Shown here: piece after piece, positions 12,816-58,725 of the stretch | How the letters are laid out: each line of letters opens with the position of its first letter | Numbering within the stretch: position 1 is the first letter of the stretch | Source: Bacillota bacterium | GTDB lineage: Bacteria; Bacillota; Clostridia; DUPQ01 | Direction: 5' to 3' | Assembly: GCA_036743175.1 (NCBI GenBank) | Contig: DAINQB010000001.1 | Span: 69,135-133,134 of the forward strand | Length of the DNA stretch: 64,000 nucleotides | Translations under genes and position numbers: made by a program | Notes under the pieces: model-generated | Database searches by the model: none | Seen by the model: only the letters and a program-made list of their open reading frames with translations | Told to the model about the DNA's origin: nothing

Positions 12816-12861
12816 GCTAAATTATATATGACCGATTTGACAATGTCAACATCTATTATAT

Positions 12862-14484
12862 TCAATTTCCATTTTTTGTCAATTGTTTGAGTTTATTAAC
12901 AGTTCCGTTCCATATCTGCCTCATTTCATCTATCTTCATGTAATATGAAGAAACGGCATAGGCAATCATGCCGATCAGTATATCAAGGGTTACCCATGCA
13001 AGCTGCCGGCTCTTTGATATGACCATAATGCTTTTACCTAATAAAAGTGGAGCTATTATGCTGTCCGATAAATATACCGCTGCTCCCATGATAAGGACGG
13101 CTATGGCAGTCTTCAGTACAAATCCCTTTTTATCAATGAACCTGAATCCTTTTATTCGCTTCCTGAAAAGCAGCAGAAGGGTTACTGTTATGAATATTGT
13201 GGCAATAGAATATGCAAGGGCAACACCGGCAGCCCCCATGTCCGTGGTTCTGGTAACAGTATAGGCCAGTATGAAGTTGATTATTATACCTATGCTTCCT
13301 GCAATGAACGGCAGCATTGAATTCTTGGTGGAATAGTATGCCCTGTTCATTATTGTGTTTATTGACTGGGTGACTATAGAAAGGCTGTAAAGGGTAAGCA
13401 TTGCGGCAGTCAGTGATACCGCAGCATCGTCAAGATTCCCCCAGTTGAACATCAGCTGGATGGTAGGTTTGCTGATGATTGCAAGCCCTGCCGCAGATGG
13501 GACGGCAAGGAAGAGAACAAATCTAATGGCAGAATTCAGTTTTTCACCAAGTTCATTGAATTTCCCGAATGCATAAAGAGCGGATAAGGATGGAAGGATT
13601 GCGACACCTACTGCCTGTGCAATTATTCCAAGAGGCATCTGCCATGTCTTTCCGGCAACTTCAAGGGCACTGAGACTTCCTTCATCAAAGAATGTTGTAT
13701 AGTATTTTGAAATTATGAAGTTGATCTGCACGAATGCAGATGTCAGAAGCGTTGGAACCGCAAGCCTCACCATCCTGTGGAAATCAGGATGAGCCATATG
13801 CAGGGTAGGTCTGTAATCCTTCATGTATTTGATCGTGAATGAAAACTGAAGGATGAAATAGAAGAATGAACAGATTACGATGCCAAGTACAACCTTCTCA
13901 GCGCCATAGTTGCTTGATGCATCAGAATTGCTGAGGAAGAAAATACTCAGTACAGTCGCCAGATTGTATACGCAGGGCCCAAAGGCTGCAACAACGAACT
14001 TTGAATATGAATTGAGTATTCCGTTGCAGAACCCTGAAAGCATCATAAAAAATGAAATTGGCATCAATATCCTGGTCAGCCTTACTGCCAGTTCCATCTT
14101 TTCAGGGGGAGCATCGGCAAAGCCTCTGGCGACAAGATTCATCAGCTGCGGTGCAAAAACCACACCAAGTATGCATATCACCATCATGACAATCATCATG
14201 ACATTGATATATGTGCTTACTACCTTCCAGCCTTCCTTCTCTTCTTTTTTTTCGACGTACCCGGTCAGCATGGGAATCAGTGATGCCGCTATGGCTCCGC
14301 CCACCAACAGACCGTACATAAGATCCGGTATCTGAAATGCAGCATTGTATGCATCTGCAACACTGCTGTAACCACCCATTCTTGCGGGAATGAGAGCAGT
14401 CCTGAAAAACCCCAGTATCCTGCTGAGCAGTACTGAAAGCATTATCATGGCTGCCGTTCCCCTGAAGCTGACCCTGTTGCTCAA
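12862..14484 (-). CDS. murJ: Lipid II flippase MurJ (MviN)
   Basis: 540 aa, 14 TM segments, MurJ/MviN-type N-terminus LLSRILGFFR. Confidence 0.8.
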   Translation of the reverse strand: MSNRVSFRGTAAMIMLSVLLSRILGFFRTALIPARMGGYSSVADAYNAAFQIPDLMYGLLVGGAIAASLIPMLTGYVEKKEEKEGWKVVSTYINVMMIVMMVICILGVVFAPQLMNLVARGFADAPPEKMELAVRLTRILMPISFFMMLSGFCNGILNSYSKFVVAAFGPCVYNLATVLSIFFLSNSDASSNYGAEKVVLGIVICSFFYFILQFSFTIKYMKDYRPTLHMAHPDFHRMVRLAVPTLLTSAFVQINFIISKYYTTFFDEGSLSALEVAGKTWQMPLGIIAQAVGVAILPSLSALYAFGKFNELGEKLNSAIRFVLFLAVPSAAGLAIISKPTIQLMFNWGNLDDAAVSLTAAMLTLYSLSIVTQSINTIMNRAYYSTKNSMLPFIAGSIGIIINFILAYTVTRTTDMGAAGVALAYSIATIFITVTLLLLFRKRIKGFRFIDKKGFVLKTAIAVLIMGAAVYLSDSIIAPLLLGKSIMVISKSRQLAWVTLDILIGMIAYAVSSYYMKIDEMRQIWNGTVNKLKQLTKNGN

Positions 14485-15731
14485 TCCTCGACCTCCATCC
14501 CCAGTTCATGCCTTCTTATCATATCAAGGGCATGAAGACAGGAAGAATACCTTATTCTGTCCCTGCCGCCCCAAAGTTTCAATTGCTTTGTTTTGGTTCC
14601 ATACGCGTCGGATATTGCAATGAAGACTGTTCCCACGGGTTTTTCAACGGTTCCCCCGTCGGGACCTGCAATACCTGTGATTGAAAGACCAATCCCACAG
14701 TTGCAGGTTTTTCTTGCACCCTCAGCCATCTCGATTGCTGTCTCGGCACTCACCGCTCCATATCTTTCAATTGTTTCAGGCAACACACCCAACACATTGA
14801 TCTTCGATTGGTTTGAATATGTAACAGCTCCCATGTACAGAACAGATGAAATCCCCGGAATGTCTGTAAGCATGGATGTCAGTTTTCCGCCTGTACATGA
14901 TTCTGCTATGGCAATGCCCGTTTTATTTTTCATGAGCAAAGCTGAAGTTACCTGATGAAGTTCCTCATTGTTGTAAGAGTAAATGTATTTTCCCAGCCTG
15001 TCTTTGATTTCATTGAGAACAGGAGCCATCATTTCATCGGGGTTCTCCCGTCCCGGTATGTATTTTACCGTAACCCTGAGTGTAGTTTCACCCATCTTTG
15101 CATAAGGAGCTATTGTAGGATTGCTCTGTGCGGTTATCAAATCATTTATGACAGTCTCCATGCTTGATTCGCCTATGCCGAACATCCTGATGAAGACTGA
15201 TTTAAGCTTATAGTTCGCCCTTTTCATGAAAAATGGAAGTACTGACTGCTCAAACATGGGTTCCATTTCCCATGGCGGACCCGGAAGCATTACAACGGTT
15301 TTTTCATTCTTTTCTATGATACATCCCGGAGCAGTTCCATTGTCATTCCTGAGTATTATTGCACCCTCAGGAAAATATCCCTGTTTTTCATTGTTTGCCG
15401 TGGCTGTCCTTCCCAGTTTGTTGAAAAATCCATGTATTTTCTGCAATGTTTCTTCGTCAGGCACCATCCTAAGCCCAAGTGCATTGGCAATTGTTTCCTT
15501 GGTCAGGTCATCCTGTGTGGGCCCAAGGCCACCGGTTGTCAGTATGACATCTGCTCTTTTGAGAGCTATGTCAAGACAAGAAGACAGCCGCTGGGGATTG
15601 TCCCCGACGACTGTATGATAATACACATATACGTCTGCATCCGGGAATCGTTCTGACACATAACGGGCATTTGTATTCGTTATCTGCCCCATCAGAAGCT
15701 CCGTGCCAACGGCAATAATTTCAGCGATCAA
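14481..15731 (-). CDS. cinA: Competence/damage-inducible protein CinA (NMN amidohydrolase)
   Basis: N-terminal MoCF-biosynthesis domain MIAEIIAVGTELLMGQITNTNA; C-terminal CinA domain. Confidence 0.85.
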   Translation of the reverse strand: MIAEIIAVGTELLMGQITNTNARYVSERFPDADVYVYYHTVVGDNPQRLSSCLDIALKRADVILTTGGLGPTQDDLTKETIANALGLRMVPDEETLQKIHGFFNKLGRTATANNEKQGYFPEGAIILRNDNGTAPGCIIEKNEKTVVMLPGPPWEMEPMFEQSVLPFFMKRANYKLKSVFIRMFGIGESSMETVINDLITAQSNPTIAPYAKMGETTLRVTVKYIPGRENPDEMMAPVLNEIKDRLGKYIYSYNNEELHQVTSALLMKNKTGIAIAESCTGGKLTSMLTDIPGISSVLYMGAVTYSNQSKINVLGVLPETIERYGAVSAETAIEMAEGARKTCNCGIGLSITGIAGPDGGTVEKPVGTVFIAISDAYGTKTKQLKLWGGRDRIRYSSCLHALDMIRRHELGMEVED

Positions 15732-15745
15732 ATTGCTAAAACCTC

Positions 15746-16177
15746 CTATTGGTTATAGACAGCATCAGAAGACAATACTTCAAGTCCCTTGGCCTGCAGG
15801 CTTTTGATTGCCCTTTCGCAATCCTCGACCCTCAGGATGACATTTGCCTTGTGACTGGTCTTTGAGATGAATGCATATATATATTCCACGCTGATTTTGT
15901 CTTCATGGAGAATCTGCAGTGCATCTGCAAGACCTCCGGGTGCATCCTCTATGGATATGGCAATTACTTCAGTAATGCTTACAGTAAAACCTTCATTGCG
16001 GAGTGCTTCCTCAGCCTTCCTGGGATGGTCCACGATAAGCCTGAGTATTCCAAACTCAGTCGTATCCGCAATCGAAAGAGCCCTGATGTTGATGTTTGCA
16101 TCACTGAGGATCCGGGCAACCTGTGCAACCCTTCCCTCTTTGTTTTCCAGAAAAACCGAAATCTGTTTTACAAGCAT
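15746..16177 (-). CDS. ACT domain-containing protein
   Basis: 143 aa with two ACT-like halves; the typical partner of PaaK-like ligases. Confidence 0.7.
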   Translation of the reverse strand: MLVKQISVFLENKEGRVAQVARILSDANINIRALSIADTTEFGILRLIVDHPRKAEEALRNEGFTVSITEVIAISIEDAPGGLADALQILHEDKISVEYIYAFISKTSHKANVILRVEDCERAIKSLQAKGLEVLSSDAVYNQ

Positions 16178-16187
16178 ACCTTCCTCC

Positions 16188-17489
16188 TTATAAGTTCCTG
16201 TTGTCTATGACACGCTGTGCCTTGCCTTCACTCCTGGCTATTGTCTTGGGTTCAACCAGAGTAACCTTTGCGCTTATTGCCAGTGTGCTTTCAATGTTGA
16301 ACTTGAGTTTTCTCTCAAGGTCCTCAATTTTCTTAACTTCATCCGAGAACAGTGCCTGGGTCATCTCAACCTGTACTTCAAGGGCGTCCATGGACCCTGC
16401 CTTGGAAACTATCAGCTGGTAGTGAGGGGCTGTTTCCCCAAGTTCCAGAAGAACACTTTCAATCTGTGTCGGGAATACATTTACTCCCCTGATTATAAGC
16501 ATATCGTCGGTTCTTCCCGTGACCTTCTCCATCCTGTAGGAGGTTCTTCCGCAGGCGCACGGTTCATTGTTGAGCTTTGATATATCCCTGGTCCTGTATC
16601 TAAGCAACGGAAGTGCTTTCTTTGTTACGGTGGTGAAGACTATTTCGCCCTGCTCACCATAATCCAGAACTTCTTCGGTATCAGGGTTGATTATCTCAGG
16701 TATGAAATGGTCATCATTTACATGCAGTCCGCATTTTTCAGGGCACTCCTGGGATACGCCGGGGCCGATTATTTCGCTGAGGCCATATATATCGATTGCA
16801 AGGACACCAAGTCTTTCCTCTATGTCCTTCCTCATATTTTCACTCCATGGTTCCGCTCCGAATATTCCCGCCTTCAGTTTAATCTTTGAACGGTCAATCT
16901 TCTGTTCCTCAATGACTTCTGCAAGATAAAGGGCGTATGAAGGTGTGCATGAAATAATGGTTGGACCAAAGTCAAGCATCAGTTCAATCTGTCTCTTTGT
17001 ATTGCCACCTGATATGGGTATGACAGCCATTCCTATTTTTTCCGCACCATAATGTACCCCAAGGCCTCCTGTGAAAAGTCCGTATCCGTATGCATTCTGG
17101 AGAATGTCAGATTTTGTAGCACCGCAGGCACTGATAGTCCTTGCCATGACCTCTGCCCAGACATCAATGTCATCCCTTGTATATCCTACGACAGTTCTTT
17201 TTCCCGTTGTCCCGCTGGAAGCATGTATCCTCACGACATCATCCATGGGAACGGCAAAAAGTCCATATGGATAATGCTCCCTGAGGTCCGTTTTATATGT
17301 GAACGGCAGATCCTTCAGATTGTCGATGCTCTTTATATCACCGGGCAGGATGCCAAGGTCATCCATCTTTTTCTTGTAAAAGGGAACGTTGGCATAGACA
17401 TGTGCAACGGTTTCGGCAAGCCTCTTCCCCTGCAGCTGTCTCTTTTCCTCATCGCCCATACATTCATACTTGGGATTCCAGATTGTCAT
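16188..17489 (-). CDS. paaK: Phenylacetate--CoA ligase family protein (PaaK-like)
   Basis: 433 aa. AMP-binding motif [11 protein letters not shown] and overall PaaK/F390-synthetase-like sequence. Confidence 0.8.
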
Positions 17490-17544: not shown

Positions 17545-17813
17545 TATAAAAAAGCCCGTCTCACAAAGAGACGGAGCTTATCCGCGGTACCACACTTCTT
17601 CCCGGTAAAACCGGGCCCTCCGGAATAACGGTTCCGATTCCGTTGTTTTCTACTTGATGTTCAAAAACAATGCTCAGGTATGAAATTTCACTGTTCCGCA
17701 GTGCCGGGTCATCCCACTCCCAGACCCTCTCTTGTGGTTACGGGCAGTTACTTTGTACCTTCATCGCTTCAACGTATTGAAGTTATTATATTATCTGCGT
17801 CTAGTGCTGTCAA
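17545..17813 (-). promoter_or_regulatory. T-box riboswitch leader (promoter + stem I + T-box + terminator) controlling paaK-ACT; specifier probably UUC (Phe)
   Basis: Read on the minus strand. Sigma-A promoter TTGACA-17nt-TATAAT (-35 = 17808-17813, -10 = 17785-17790). Stem I base K-turn GCGAUGAAGG...CCUGAGC. Specifier loop with AGUA on the 5' side and GAAAUUUCA (UUC + A) on the 3' side. T-box sequence AGUGUGGUACCGCGG (17580-17595). Terminator hairpin CCGUCUC/GAGACGG + U6 (17545-17577), immediately upstream of the paaK start. Confidence 0.8.
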
Positions 17814-53046: not shown

Positions 53047-54415
53047 AGTCAAGTCCATAATTGTGTGTAAATTCTCCTCCGGAAAAATTCATATTGCTAC
53101 ACCTTCCCGAGGGTTCATGGCCGTGGGTCGGTCTTTTACATAATCATGATATTCTTCCATATTGAAATATTTCCTGCCACTTATCCATTTCTCATGCTGT
53201 TCCATCAGCAATGCTCCCAATAGTCTGATTATTGATTTCTCATTCGGGAATATCCGGATTACACGCTCACGTCTCCTGATTTCCTCATTCAGCCTTTCAA
53301 TGCAGTTTGATGTCCTCAGCCTTTTCCTGTAGTGCTCCGGTAGTGAAAAAACTGCAGTTATATCATCAAATGAATCATCAAGCAGTTTCATGGCCTTTGG
53401 GAACTCCTTCTTGTACCTTGCGACCATATCTGTTTTTCTGACAAGAGCACTGTCTTTGTCTGGTGCATTGTATATGTCAGTGAGATGTGCCTTGACCTCA
53501 GCTTTCCTTGTGTTTGGAACCTTGTCCAGCAGATTCTTTGAAAAGTGGGTCTGGCATCTCTGCCAGGATGCATTATGGAACTGTTTCTTTATTGCATTTA
53601 CAAGCCCCATATGGCTGTCACTTGTCATAATGTCAATGTTTGAAAGACCTCTGTCCTTAAGGGATATGAAAAACTTGTTCCATGACTCTTCGGACTCAGT
53701 GTCATCCACTGCAAATCCTATGATTTCCCTGTGTCCGTCAGTGATAATACCTATAGCTATCATTAGTCCCTTGTTCCTTACTATGTTGTTTTCCCTGGCC
53801 CTTGTGTACAAAGCATCAACTATTACAAAGAGGTAACTCTTATCAAGTGGTCTGTTCCTGAATTCAGCTACGATTGGATCCAGTCCCAGGCAAAGAGCCG
53901 ATACAGTTGATTTGGAGAACTCAGTGCCGCAAAGCTGCTGTGTAATCTCCTTTACCTTTCTTGTAGAGACACCATTGATTACCATTTCCATCATGGATAG
54001 TACCAATGCCTGCTCGCTGCGCTGGTATTCATGGAAGAGCGTGGTAGAGAAGTTTCCGTTTCTCAACCTGGGAATGGCCAGGGTGAGCTGTCCGATGCGC
54101 ACGTTCATGCTTCTGTCCCTCGTACCGTTCCTGTATGCGTTCCTGTCGTCAGATCTCTCATACTTCTGTGCTCCTATTTGTTCAGTTGCCTGAGCGTCCA
54201 AAACCTGGTTCAGGACCTTCTGCACCAGGTTCGCAAATGCCTTGTCTTTTGAATCTCCTGTAAAAAGCCCTTTAATATCTTCTCCATTCAGTGTAATATT
54301 GAATTGAGTCACGGTCTGAGTACCTCCTGTATTATTTATTTGTTATCGATTTAATTATACCGAAGGTCTCAGACTTTTTCTCTGAGTGAATTTACACCAT
54401 TATATGGACTTTATC
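53047..54415 (-). mobile_element. IS256-family insertion sequence, copy 1
   Basis: ~1.37 kb; imperfect terminal inverted repeats GT(C)AAGTCCATAATTGTGTGTAAATTC / GATAAAGTCCATATAATGGTGTAAATTC; encodes a 407-aa mutator-type transposase. Confidence 0.85.
53089..54312 (-). CDS. IS256 family transposase
   Basis: 407 aa with a mutator/IS256-type DDE transposase sequence; identical to the second copy. Confidence 0.9.
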   Translation of the reverse strand: MTQFNITLNGEDIKGLFTGDSKDKAFANLVQKVLNQVLDAQATEQIGAQKYERSDDRNAYRNGTRDRSMNVRIGQLTLAIPRLRNGNFSTTLFHEYQRSEQALVLSMMEMVINGVSTRKVKEITQQLCGTEFSKSTVSALCLGLDPIVAEFRNRPLDKSYLFVIVDALYTRARENNIVRNKGLMIAIGIITDGHREIIGFAVDDTESEESWNKFFISLKDRGLSNIDIMTSDSHMGLVNAIKKQFHNASWQRCQTHFSKNLLDKVPNTRKAEVKAHLTDIYNAPDKDSALVRKTDMVARYKKEFPKAMKLLDDSFDDITAVFSLPEHYRKRLRTSNCIERLNEEIRRRERVIRIFPNEKSIIRLLGALLMEQHEKWISGRKYFNMEEYHDYVKDRPTAMNPREGVAI

Positions 54416-57359: not shown

Positions 57360-58725
57360 AGTTAAGTCCATATTTGTGTGTAAATTCTCCTCCGGAAAAA
57401 TTCATATTGCTACACCTTCCCGAGGGTTCATGGCCGTGGGTCGGTCTTTTACATAATCATGATATTCTTCCATATTGAAATATTTCCTGCCACTTATCCA
57501 TTTCTCATGCTGTTCCATCAGCAATGCTCCCAATAGTCTGATTATTGATTTCTCATTCGGGAATATCCGGATTACACGCTCACGTCTCCTGATTTCCTCA
57601 TTCAGCCTTTCAATGCAGTTTGATGTCCTCAGCCTTTTCCTGTAGTGCTCCGGTAGTGAAAAAACTGCAGTTATATCATCAAATGAATCATCAAGCAGTT
57701 TCATGGCCTTTGGGAACTCCTTCTTGTACCTTGCGACCATATCTGTTTTTCTGACAAGAGCACTGTCTTTGTCTGGTGCATTGTATATGTCAGTGAGATG
57801 TGCCTTGACCTCAGCTTTCCTTGTGTTTGGAACCTTGTCCAGCAGATTCTTTGAAAAGTGGGTCTGGCATCTCTGCCAGGATGCATTATGGAACTGTTTC
57901 TTTATTGCATTTACAAGCCCCATATGGCTGTCACTTGTCATAATGTCAATGTTTGAAAGACCTCTGTCCTTAAGGGATATGAAAAACTTGTTCCATGACT
58001 CTTCGGACTCAGTGTCATCCACTGCAAATCCTATGATTTCCCTGTGTCCGTCAGTGATAATACCTATAGCTATCATTAGTCCCTTGTTCCTTACTATGTT
58101 GTTTTCCCTGGCCCTTGTGTACAAAGCATCAACTATTACAAAGAGGTAACTCTTATCAAGTGGTCTGTTCCTGAATTCAGCTACGATTGGATCCAGTCCC
58201 AGGCAAAGAGCCGATACAGTTGATTTGGAGAACTCAGTGCCGCAAAGCTGCTGTGTAATCTCCTTTACCTTTCTTGTAGAGACACCATTGATTACCATTT
58301 CCATCATGGATAGTACCAATGCCTGCTCGCTGCGCTGGTATTCATGGAAGAGCGTGGTAGAGAAGTTTCCGTTTCTCAACCTGGGAATGGCCAGGGTGAG
58401 CTGTCCGATGCGCACGTTCATGCTTCTGTCCCTCGTACCGTTCCTGTATGCGTTCCTGTCGTCAGATCTCTCATACTTCTGTGCTCCTATTTGTTCAGTT
58501 GCCTGAGCGTCCAAAACCTGGTTCAGGACCTTCTGCACCAGGTTCGCAAATGCCTTGTCTTTTGAATCTCCTGTAAAAAGTCCTTTAATATCTTCTCCAT
58601 TCAGTGTAATATTGAATTGAGTCATGTCTGAGTACCTCCTGTATTTTTGTTTTTTCTCAATTTAATTATACCGAAGGTCTCAGACTTTTCTCTGAGTGAA
58701 TTTACACCATTATATGGACTTTATC
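57360..58725 (-). mobile_element. IS256-family insertion sequence, copy 2
   Basis: Same termini and same orientation as copy 1; the encoded transposase is identical. Confidence 0.85.
57402..58625 (-). CDS. IS256 family transposase
   Basis: Identical 407-aa product to 53089..54312. Confidence 0.9.
   Translation of the reverse strand: MTQFNITLNGEDIKGLFTGDSKDKAFANLVQKVLNQVLDAQATEQIGAQKYERSDDRNAYRNGTRDRSMNVRIGQLTLAIPRLRNGNFSTTLFHEYQRSEQALVLSMMEMVINGVSTRKVKEITQQLCGTEFSKSTVSALCLGLDPIVAEFRNRPLDKSYLFVIVDALYTRARENNIVRNKGLMIAIGIITDGHREIIGFAVDDTESEESWNKFFISLKDRGLSNIDIMTSDSHMGLVNAIKKQFHNASWQRCQTHFSKNLLDKVPNTRKAEVKAHLTDIYNAPDKDSALVRKTDMVARYKKEFPKAMKLLDDSFDDITAVFSLPEHYRKRLRTSNCIERLNEEIRRRERVIRIFPNEKSIIRLLGALLMEQHEKWISGRKYFNMEEYHDYVKDRPTAMNPREGVAI

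Follow-up and report, generated by a model that had tools for sequence, protein, structure and literature searches.

We analysed a 64-kb stretch of a Bacillota contig (DAINQB010000001.1, positions 69,135 to 133,134; hereafter the window) that contains a T-box leader in front of genes for a ligase resembling phenylacetate-CoA ligase (PaaK) and an ACT-domain protein. A preliminary description of this DNA had proposed that the leader senses phenylalanine (Phe) starvation through tRNA-Phe and controls the two genes for the salvage of phenylacetate. All coordinates are positions in the window, and the T-box locus lies on the minus strand throughout. In the order of transcription, the locus comprises a promoter, the T-box leader (17564–17773), an intrinsic terminator, a gene for a PaaK-like arylacetate-CoA ligase of 433 amino acids (16188–17489) and a gene for an ACT-pair protein of 143 amino acids (15746–16177). 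Related loci, numbered with the prefix L, served for comparison: 56 were drawn from a one-genome-per-species collection and 55 were metagenomic, and exact protein look-up added a few more.

The T-box leader and its switch

The consensus promoter that had been proposed was found at its predicted place. A -35 hexamer TTGACA (17808–17813) and a -10 hexamer TATAAT (17785–17790), separated by a 17-nt spacer, gave a 12/12 sigma-70-type match in the promoter scan, and the -10 region is kept in an alignment of nine related leaders (alignment A1, see below). The 8-kb region scanned contains two further 12/12 sites, both upstream of recA. Downstream of the promoter, the window at 17773–17564 matched the T-box covariance model (CM) RF00230 over its full length (model positions 1–219), scoring 104.6 bits, where the gathering score is 93, at an E-value of 4.9e-22. 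This was the sole Rfam hit across the 64 kb.

The CM alignment placed the canonical elements in order. Stem I (17672–17767) consists of a K-turn at its base, the helix GGUA/UACC, the specifier loop, an AGAGA bulge and the distal helix GGGUC/GACCC. The K-turn and the AGUA S-turn element had been named in the preliminary description, and the alignment contains both: the 5' side (GC-GAUGAA) and the 3' side (UGA-GC) of the K-turn align to conserved columns, and both halves of the S-turn, AGUA and GAA, occur in Stem I. The AGAGA bulge also fits conserved columns, and the distal loop, UGGGAGUGGGAU, matches the consensus in part only. Stem I is followed by Stem II (UGUUUUU/GAAAACA with GAA...AGUA loop motifs; 17644–17669), the Stem IIA/B element (CGG...CCG, then UUA; 17629–17642) and Stem III (CCCGGU/ACCGGG; 17601–17615). 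Judged by these aligned motifs, the leader RNA is an ordinary class I transcriptional T-box, and its novelty would lie in the gene under its control. We also compared the minimum free energy fold of isolated Stem I with that of shuffled sequence. It was no better (z = -0.12), and the comparison is uninformative because Stem I relies on non-canonical motifs.

We assigned the specifier using the CM columns and the positional rule of TBDB, which takes as the specifier nucleotides 2–4 of the specifier bulge, numbered from its 3' end (PMC7778990). The 3' strand of the specifier loop, GAAAUUUCA, reads U17684 U17683 C17682 followed by A17681, and abuts the UACC stem strand that pairs with GGUA. The CM puts UUC (17682–17684) in the specifier columns, as originally read, and not the alternative triplet GAA, and it assigns A17681 to the column of the conserved purine. 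In TBDB, UUC accounts for 99% of the Phe specifiers and UAC for 99% of the tyrosine (Tyr) specifiers (PMC7778990). Eight of nine leaders of the window's own clade have an identical GAAAUUUCA strand, and TTTCA does not vary in any of the nine; the strand of the remaining leader (L005), GACAUUUCA, differs by one change, within the S-turn GAA. UUC stands in the standard frame in 16 leaders before orthologous ligases from four lineages, namely the window clade (L001–L005, L061, L063, L073, L117 and L118), the Tepidanaerobacteraceae (L014, L016 and L040), L037 and L077. We take it from these positions that the specifier is one for tRNA-Phe with the anticodon GAA.

The antiterminator of the CM alignment (17567–17596) is composed of the helix AGUG/CUCU, which has a U-U mismatch, a 7-nt bulge UGGUACC, and the helix GCGGA/UCCGU. 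The UGGU of the bulge occupies 17592–17589, and the T-box sequence AGUGUGGUACCGCGG, which the preliminary description had also recognized, lies at 17596–17582. The terminator scan identified an intrinsic terminator (17548–17575) of the form UCCGUCUC-UUUGU-GAGACGGG followed by C and U6. Its hairpin has eight pairs and spans 17575–17555, and after a single C the T6 follows at 17553–17548. From the end of the U-tract to the ATG at 17489 we measured 58 nt, close to the ~55 nt first estimated, and a GGAG-type ribosome-binding site precedes the ATG. One and the same strand serves as the 5' side of the terminator and the 3' side of the antiterminator, so that the two structures are mutually exclusive, and the antiterminator alternative that had been looked for thus exists. 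The folding energy was -18.6 kcal/mol for the terminator region compared with -5.3 for the antiterminator alone. A stable terminator facing a weak antiterminator is the usual asymmetry, and suggests that read-through depends on stabilization by uncharged tRNA.

T-box genes are switched on when their cognate tRNA is uncharged, and bacterial tRNA-Phe carries the discriminator A73. In the mechanism that we propose, the sigma-A promoter would start the transcript and Stem I would, we infer, bind tRNA-Phe via the UUC specifier together with the distal platform. An uncharged tRNA would pair through its 3' NCCA end with the UGGU bulge, the weak antiterminator would be stabilized and RNA polymerase would read through. 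With a charged tRNA, the much stabler terminator would form and transcription would stop ahead of the ATG. Phe limitation would thereby turn on the PaaK-like ligase and the ACT-pair protein, and probably also cinA, the gene that follows them, by read-through.

We assessed the conservation of the leader in alignment A1, which holds nine leaders from the window's clade whose ligases are 78–96% identical. RNAalifold recovered Stems II and III and the terminator from this alignment and failed to recover the architecture of Stem I. For this reason, pairs were counted on a canonical T-box structure that we drew up manually, following the CM alignment. For the whole structure, 90.5% of the cells were paired, compared with 81.9 ± 1.0 in shuffles, and none of 500 shuffles reached the observed value. 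Compensatory change was found at 16 pairs, compared with 8.3 ± 1.7 in shuffles. Sliding the 3' partners by 1–3 columns dropped the pairing to 40–50%, although we note that this measure is imperfect because the structure was derived from one aligned sequence, which favours the unslid register; the compensatory changes are independent of that. The helix below the specifier loop is 100% paired, with compensatory changes at two of its four pairs (GC/CG/UG/AU and CG/UA). Stem II is 95.2% paired (three of seven pairs compensatory), Stem IIA/B 100%, Stem III 90.7% (two pairs compensatory) and the terminator 98.6%. The register of the specifier is fixed because the adjoining helix is completely paired and covaries. 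The comparison of orthologous leaders suggested with the preliminary description thus came out in favour of the element, and the leader match is beyond chance, both by its CM E-value and by its conservation with covariation in related contigs.

Genes behind the T-box and their relatives

The genes downstream of the leader are, by their Pfam domains, the PaaK-like ligase and the ACT-pair protein that had been expected. The ligase has the AMP-binding and AMP-binding_C_2 domains of the PaaK architecture and stands near solved PaaK structures. Its best solved relatives are Burkholderia PaaK1 and PaaK2 (2y27/2y4n; E-value 2.4e-139 for 2y27), and a Bacteroides structure (4r1l) matches with an E-value of 2.3e-113. 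The second protein (ACT_8, PF19571, 111.5 bits) is related to PDB 2f06 (E-value 5.6e-31), an uncharacterised structure. It is most likely an amino-acid-binding regulatory partner.

About 48 of 56 genome loci share with the window the pair of ligase and ACT genes, in that order; they come from Bacillota, Bacteroidota, Deltaproteobacteria, Fibrobacteres and one archaeon. In about 35 loci the genes iorA and iorB of an indolepyruvate/arylpyruvate:ferredoxin oxidoreductase (IOR) stand immediately upstream of the ligase, and a second ligase paralog is often found upstream of iorA.

T-boxes ahead of the ligases were detected in four lineages only. The first is the window clade, which extends down to 74% ligase identity and reads UUC in all its members (listed above). 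Where flanks are available, this clade keeps the order paaK-ACT-cinA-murJ-recA, and in a syntenic relative (L118) iorAB lies 4 kb upstream, outside the T-box unit. The second lineage is the Tepidanaerobacteraceae, represented by Fervidicola ferrireducens (L014), a metagenome-assembled genome (MAG; L016) and Thermovorax subterraneus (L040), with the loop strand GAAGUUCG. The third is a Clostridia MAG (L037) with a T-box of 134.3 bits that reads GAA-UUCA and has its own terminator. The fourth is a metagenome contig (L077) whose ligase is 59% identical to that of the window; behind its leader, which reads GAAAUUCC, come the ligase and ACT.

Some of these loci contain further elements. In L073 (2610–2890), a ~120-nt repeat, present in about 2.5 direct copies, is inserted between the T-box terminator and the start codon of the ligase, lengthening the leader-to-ATG distance to ~400 nt. 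A group II intron domain match (46.5 bits) is found near the Fervidicola locus (L014, 8399–8469, minus strand), and another ligase locus has a 6S RNA gene upstream of it (L076, 1801–1986, plus strand; 100.6 bits).

Two of the Tepidanaerobacteraceae loci have a second T-box 1.6 kb upstream of the first (L016, 4064–4284, 128.0 bits; L040, 4077–4297, 127.6 bits). This T-box has UAC as its specifier, with A as the next base, which corresponds to Tyr, and it stands before a second PaaK-like ligase, giving the layout T-box(Tyr), ligase, T-box(Phe), ligase, ACT. A neighbour-joining tree of the ligases assigns every Phe-linked one to a group whose members elsewhere, including Bacteroides, are downstream of iorB, with ACT behind them. 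It assigns both Tyr-linked ones to a group that elsewhere stands upstream of iorA (64–67% identity). The Tyr T-box predicts that the ligase behind it would be dedicated to the conversion of 4-hydroxyphenylacetate to Tyr.

The most complete gene row was found behind the Phe T-box of L037 and in L091, a contig of another metagenome record whose proteins are 99–100% identical to those of L037. The row encodes an acyl-CoA ligase, IOR alpha, IOR beta, a PaaK-like ligase, ACT and a class I/II aminotransferase. In L037, IOR alpha scored 705.5 against TIGR03336 (cut-off 650.9) and IOR beta 290.5 against NF005325 (cut-off 230). The aminotransferase is split in L037 and intact in L091 (395 amino acids). 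As annotated, this row holds exactly the enzymes for the steps from phenylacetate through phenylacetyl-CoA and phenylpyruvate to Phe.

Every ligase paralog has its own ACT in L025 and L027, which hints that ACT may be a dedicated partner. A third and remoter group of PaaK-like paralogs (~45% identity) was observed downstream of the main ligase in three loci (L026, 7806–9056; L027, 3937–5214; L050, 7340–8623). This group has its own ACT gene in L027 and L050 and no T-box alongside, and it could be a ligase for another arylacetate such as indoleacetate.

In the window, cinA (14481–15731) starts 14 nt past the ACT stop and is possibly, if uncertainly, co-transcribed. It has its own Shine-Dalgarno sequence AGGAGG, and its stop overlaps the start of murJ. 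We scanned the stretch from ACT to cinA and murJ and found neither a terminator-like site nor a promoter-like site of at least 9/12 matches, so that read-through into cinA and murJ is possible. Both genes may therefore need T-box read-through, or an internal promoter of non-consensus sequence, for their expression. L057–59, L117 and L118 share the order paaK-ACT-cinA-murJ-recA, which with recX appended persists down to 74% ligase identity (L117 and L118). Two tandem perfect (12/12) sigma-70-type promoter matches stand immediately 5' of recA (12821–12882, minus strand). Elsewhere in the window, two IS256-family transposase open reading frames (53089–54312 and 57402–58625, minus strand), both of 407 amino acids and with an identical NCBIfam score of 379.4 bits, are probably copies of one insertion sequence flanking a ~3-kb segment. 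One look-up assigned this segment to a separate 4.6-kb contig, beside a mutator-type transposase (L116).

Physiological reading and its alternatives

We consider it probable that the locus is a canonical class I tRNA-Phe T-box gating the PaaK-like ligase and the ACT-pair protein for the salvage of phenylacetate to Phe. The ligase would activate scavenged phenylacetate to phenylacetyl-CoA, IOR would reductively carboxylate phenylacetyl-CoA to phenylpyruvate, and an aminotransferase would convert phenylpyruvate to Phe. An enzyme set induced at Phe or Tyr shortage points in the biosynthetic or salvage direction and not in the catabolic one. Phe synthesis from phenylacetate by rumen anaerobes has long been known, according to the statement in PMC7356843 that cites Allison 1965. 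A 2026 study assayed the IOR-linked ligase of Bacteroides, found it to be an arylacetate-CoA ligase and suggested aromatic amino-acid biosynthesis as a possible role of the cluster (PMC13285125). Salvage on Phe starvation, as first proposed from the window, is supported by the comparative evidence of the UUC T-boxes in four lineages, the paralog's Tyr T-box and the L037/L091 operon.

A more specific proposal would divide the work between the paralogs. The ligase group downstream of iorB, with ACT, would be dedicated to making Phe from phenylacetate, and the one upstream of iorA to making Tyr from 4-hydroxyphenylacetate. The whole module would then serve anabolic aromatic amino-acid salvage induced by shortage of charged tRNA, with ACT as a dedicated feedback sensor. 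We regard the chances of this proposal as evenly balanced.

Several observations weigh against the Phe-salvage reading. Helix A1 of the antiterminator has the U-U mismatch in seven of the nine clade leaders. The T-box of L005 (2389–2601) scored 60.1 bits and has UGAU for the UGGU bulge and CCGUG for CCGCG, changes that may reflect decay of the switch in its lineage or an assembly error. Like L004, it scores under the gathering threshold. The mismatch and these two leaders would fit a leader that is an evolutionary relic without regulation, behind which the operon would be constitutively off or leaky. We hold this to be highly improbable because the window copy exceeds the gathering threshold and has the UGGU, the T-box sequence, the terminator and the consensus promoter all intact. 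Moreover, the compensatory changes across the clade indicate a structure still under selection, and the mismatched A1 pair is restored in L063 (A-U) and L003 (G-U).

The specifier raises a second group of objections. C replaces the purine after UUC in L077 and L117, and all the Phe leaders have in common a -1 frame with a serine (Ser) codon, UCN, which only the positional rule and the paralogs' Phe/Tyr pairing exclude. The leader might accordingly read another tRNA, for example tRNA-Ser through the -1 frame triplet UCA, or several tRNAs, and its link to Phe would be coincidental. TBDB reports that some T-boxes permit alternative frames, and the -1 frame gives a Ser codon in every lineage (UCA, UCG and UCC). 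However, a single identical triplet across the 16 leaders, UUC, arises in the +0 frame only, whereas the third base of the -1 frame varies and would call for different Ser isoacceptors. The neighbouring paralog is UAC (Tyr) in the +0 frame and ACA (threonine, Thr) in the -1 frame, and two arylacetate-CoA ligases suit a Phe/Tyr pair and not a Ser/Thr pair. We therefore attach very little probability to a tRNA other than tRNA-Phe. A search for tRNA genes in the 64-kb window found none, so that the cognate tRNA-Phe of this organism is a predicted one.

A third group concerns the ligase and its partners. Against TIGR02155, the PaaK equivalog model to which it is nearest, the ligase scored 593.7 bits, below the cut-off of 646.3, and for this reason we file it as PaaK-family or PaaK-like and not as an equivalog. 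We searched the 64-kb window for iorA and iorB by tblastn and found neither, so that the partner enzyme of this organism is a predicted one. Among the related loci, iorAB lies upstream in the syntenic L118, and the L037/L091 T-box operon encodes both an IOR and an aminotransferase. The T-box might sense Phe while the ligase uses another substrate, such as another aryl or acyl acid or an amino-acid-related adenylation substrate, and the operon would serve some Phe-related function besides the salvage route; in one version the ACT protein is the true target. The sub-threshold score, the window without IOR and the lack of a known function for the ACT partner are all in keeping with this, as is the existence of PaaK-like ligases with other substrates (6hdw, a 2-hydroxyisobutyryl-CoA synthetase; AjiA1; 6siw). 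Orthologs lie between iorB and ACT in dozens of genomes, though, the Bacteroides ortholog is active on arylacetates, and the Phe/Tyr specifier pair of the paralogs matches phenylacetate and 4-hydroxyphenylacetate. We judge another substrate to be unlikely and keep phenylacetate as the predicted one.

The direction of the pathway could also be the reverse. A genuine Phe-sensing T-box might control a ligase that serves Phe catabolism or energy conservation, with Phe converted through phenylpyruvate and phenylacetyl-CoA to phenylacetate by a reversed ligase, or that serves aerobic paa-type degradation. The nearest solved structures are indeed PaaK1 and PaaK2 of aerobic phenylacetate degradation, and the Bacteroides IOR has been linked to phenylacetate production from Phe in work that PMC13285125 cites. 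Yet it would be counterproductive to induce a Phe-consuming pathway under Phe starvation, AMP-forming ligases favour acyl-CoA synthesis (PMC13285125), and an aminotransferase terminates the L037/L091 operon. No paaABCDE-type genes were found near the ligase. A catabolic role therefore seems to us rather less probable still than another substrate, and we infer that the pathway runs from phenylacetate to Phe.

Finally, most orthologous IOR-ligase-ACT clusters are without a T-box. A 12-mer scan of the IOR-containing orthologous loci, together with an Rfam search on 11 of them, returned zero T-boxes. T-box control is therefore sporadic and not a general feature of the cluster.

Comparison with known systems

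T-boxes mostly control aminoacyl-tRNA synthetases, genes of de novo biosynthesis and transporters, and the genes regulated here, an arylacetate-CoA ligase and ACT, are unusual for the family. In the text and searched supplements of two open comparative T-box papers, phenylacetate-CoA ligase, paaK, iorA and indolepyruvate all go unmentioned, as does an ACT domain in the RegPrecise supplements. The searchable literature gave no link between a T-box and phenylacetate-CoA ligase, paaK or indolepyruvate, and an earlier listing in TBDB or RegPrecise is possible.

If the proposed division of work between the paralogs is correct, T-box specifiers would serve as a natural annotation of the widespread IOR-ligase-ACT clusters of anaerobes, and the direction of the cluster in gut and rumen bacteria would be settled. 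The specifiers yield testable substrate predictions for both ligase groups, and they suggest that the uncharacterised ACT-pair protein, of the PDB 2f06 family, belongs to the pathway. With Thermovorax subterraneus DSM 21563 and Fervidicola ferrireducens Y170, two organisms that have the arrangement are in culture, which makes the prediction directly testable.

We compared the locus with five kinds of known T-boxes and ligases, beginning with the class I T-boxes of the Bacillus subtilis tyrS/glyQS type (RF00230). These share with the window leader the K-turn, the S-turn specifier loop, the distal platform motifs, Stem II, Stem IIA/B, Stem III, the UGGN bulge and the competing terminator. The mechanism would be the same, and the window RNA deviates slightly in the U-U mismatch of helix A1 and in a distal loop that is not fully consensus. 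Phe T-boxes on pheS/pheT, Phe biosynthesis genes and transporters (Wels 2008, PMC2494555; TBDB, PMC7778990) have the same UUC specifier and the same induction by uncharged tRNA-Phe, whereas the target in the window is an arylacetate-CoA ligase with ACT and not a synthetase, a shikimate or prephenate gene or a transporter. A T-box on phenylalanine-4-hydroxylase in the Bacillus cereus group (Wels 2008, PMC2494555) provides a precedent, in that an aromatic amino acid is made there by an alternative, non-de-novo route under T-box control. Its chemistry differs, however, as Phe is hydroxylated to Tyr, and it belongs to another group of organisms and lacks a ligase/IOR/ACT module.

Among ligases, Burkholderia PaaK1 and PaaK2 are the closest solved homologs and belong to the same two-domain fold family. 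Those enzymes serve catabolism, and their genes stand in paa clusters and are substrate-induced, whereas the window ligase has no paa neighbours, falls under the TIGR02155 cut-off and is predicted to be induced by Phe shortage. To our knowledge, Bacteroidota have no T-boxes. In Bacteroides, the AMP-forming arylacetate-CoA ligase associated with IOR (PDB 4r1l family; PMC13285125) is in the same orthologous group as the window ligase and has the same proposed anabolic role. The direction of the IOR-ligase cluster is debated there, between host-relevant phenylacetate production and aromatic amino-acid biosynthesis, the latter raised as a possibility (PMC13285125). Phe and Tyr T-boxes before two ligase paralogs, together with one complete gene row, are evidence from regulation that these enzymes work in the direction of amino-acid synthesis, and the riboswitch logic of the window would be independent evidence for the biosynthetic direction.

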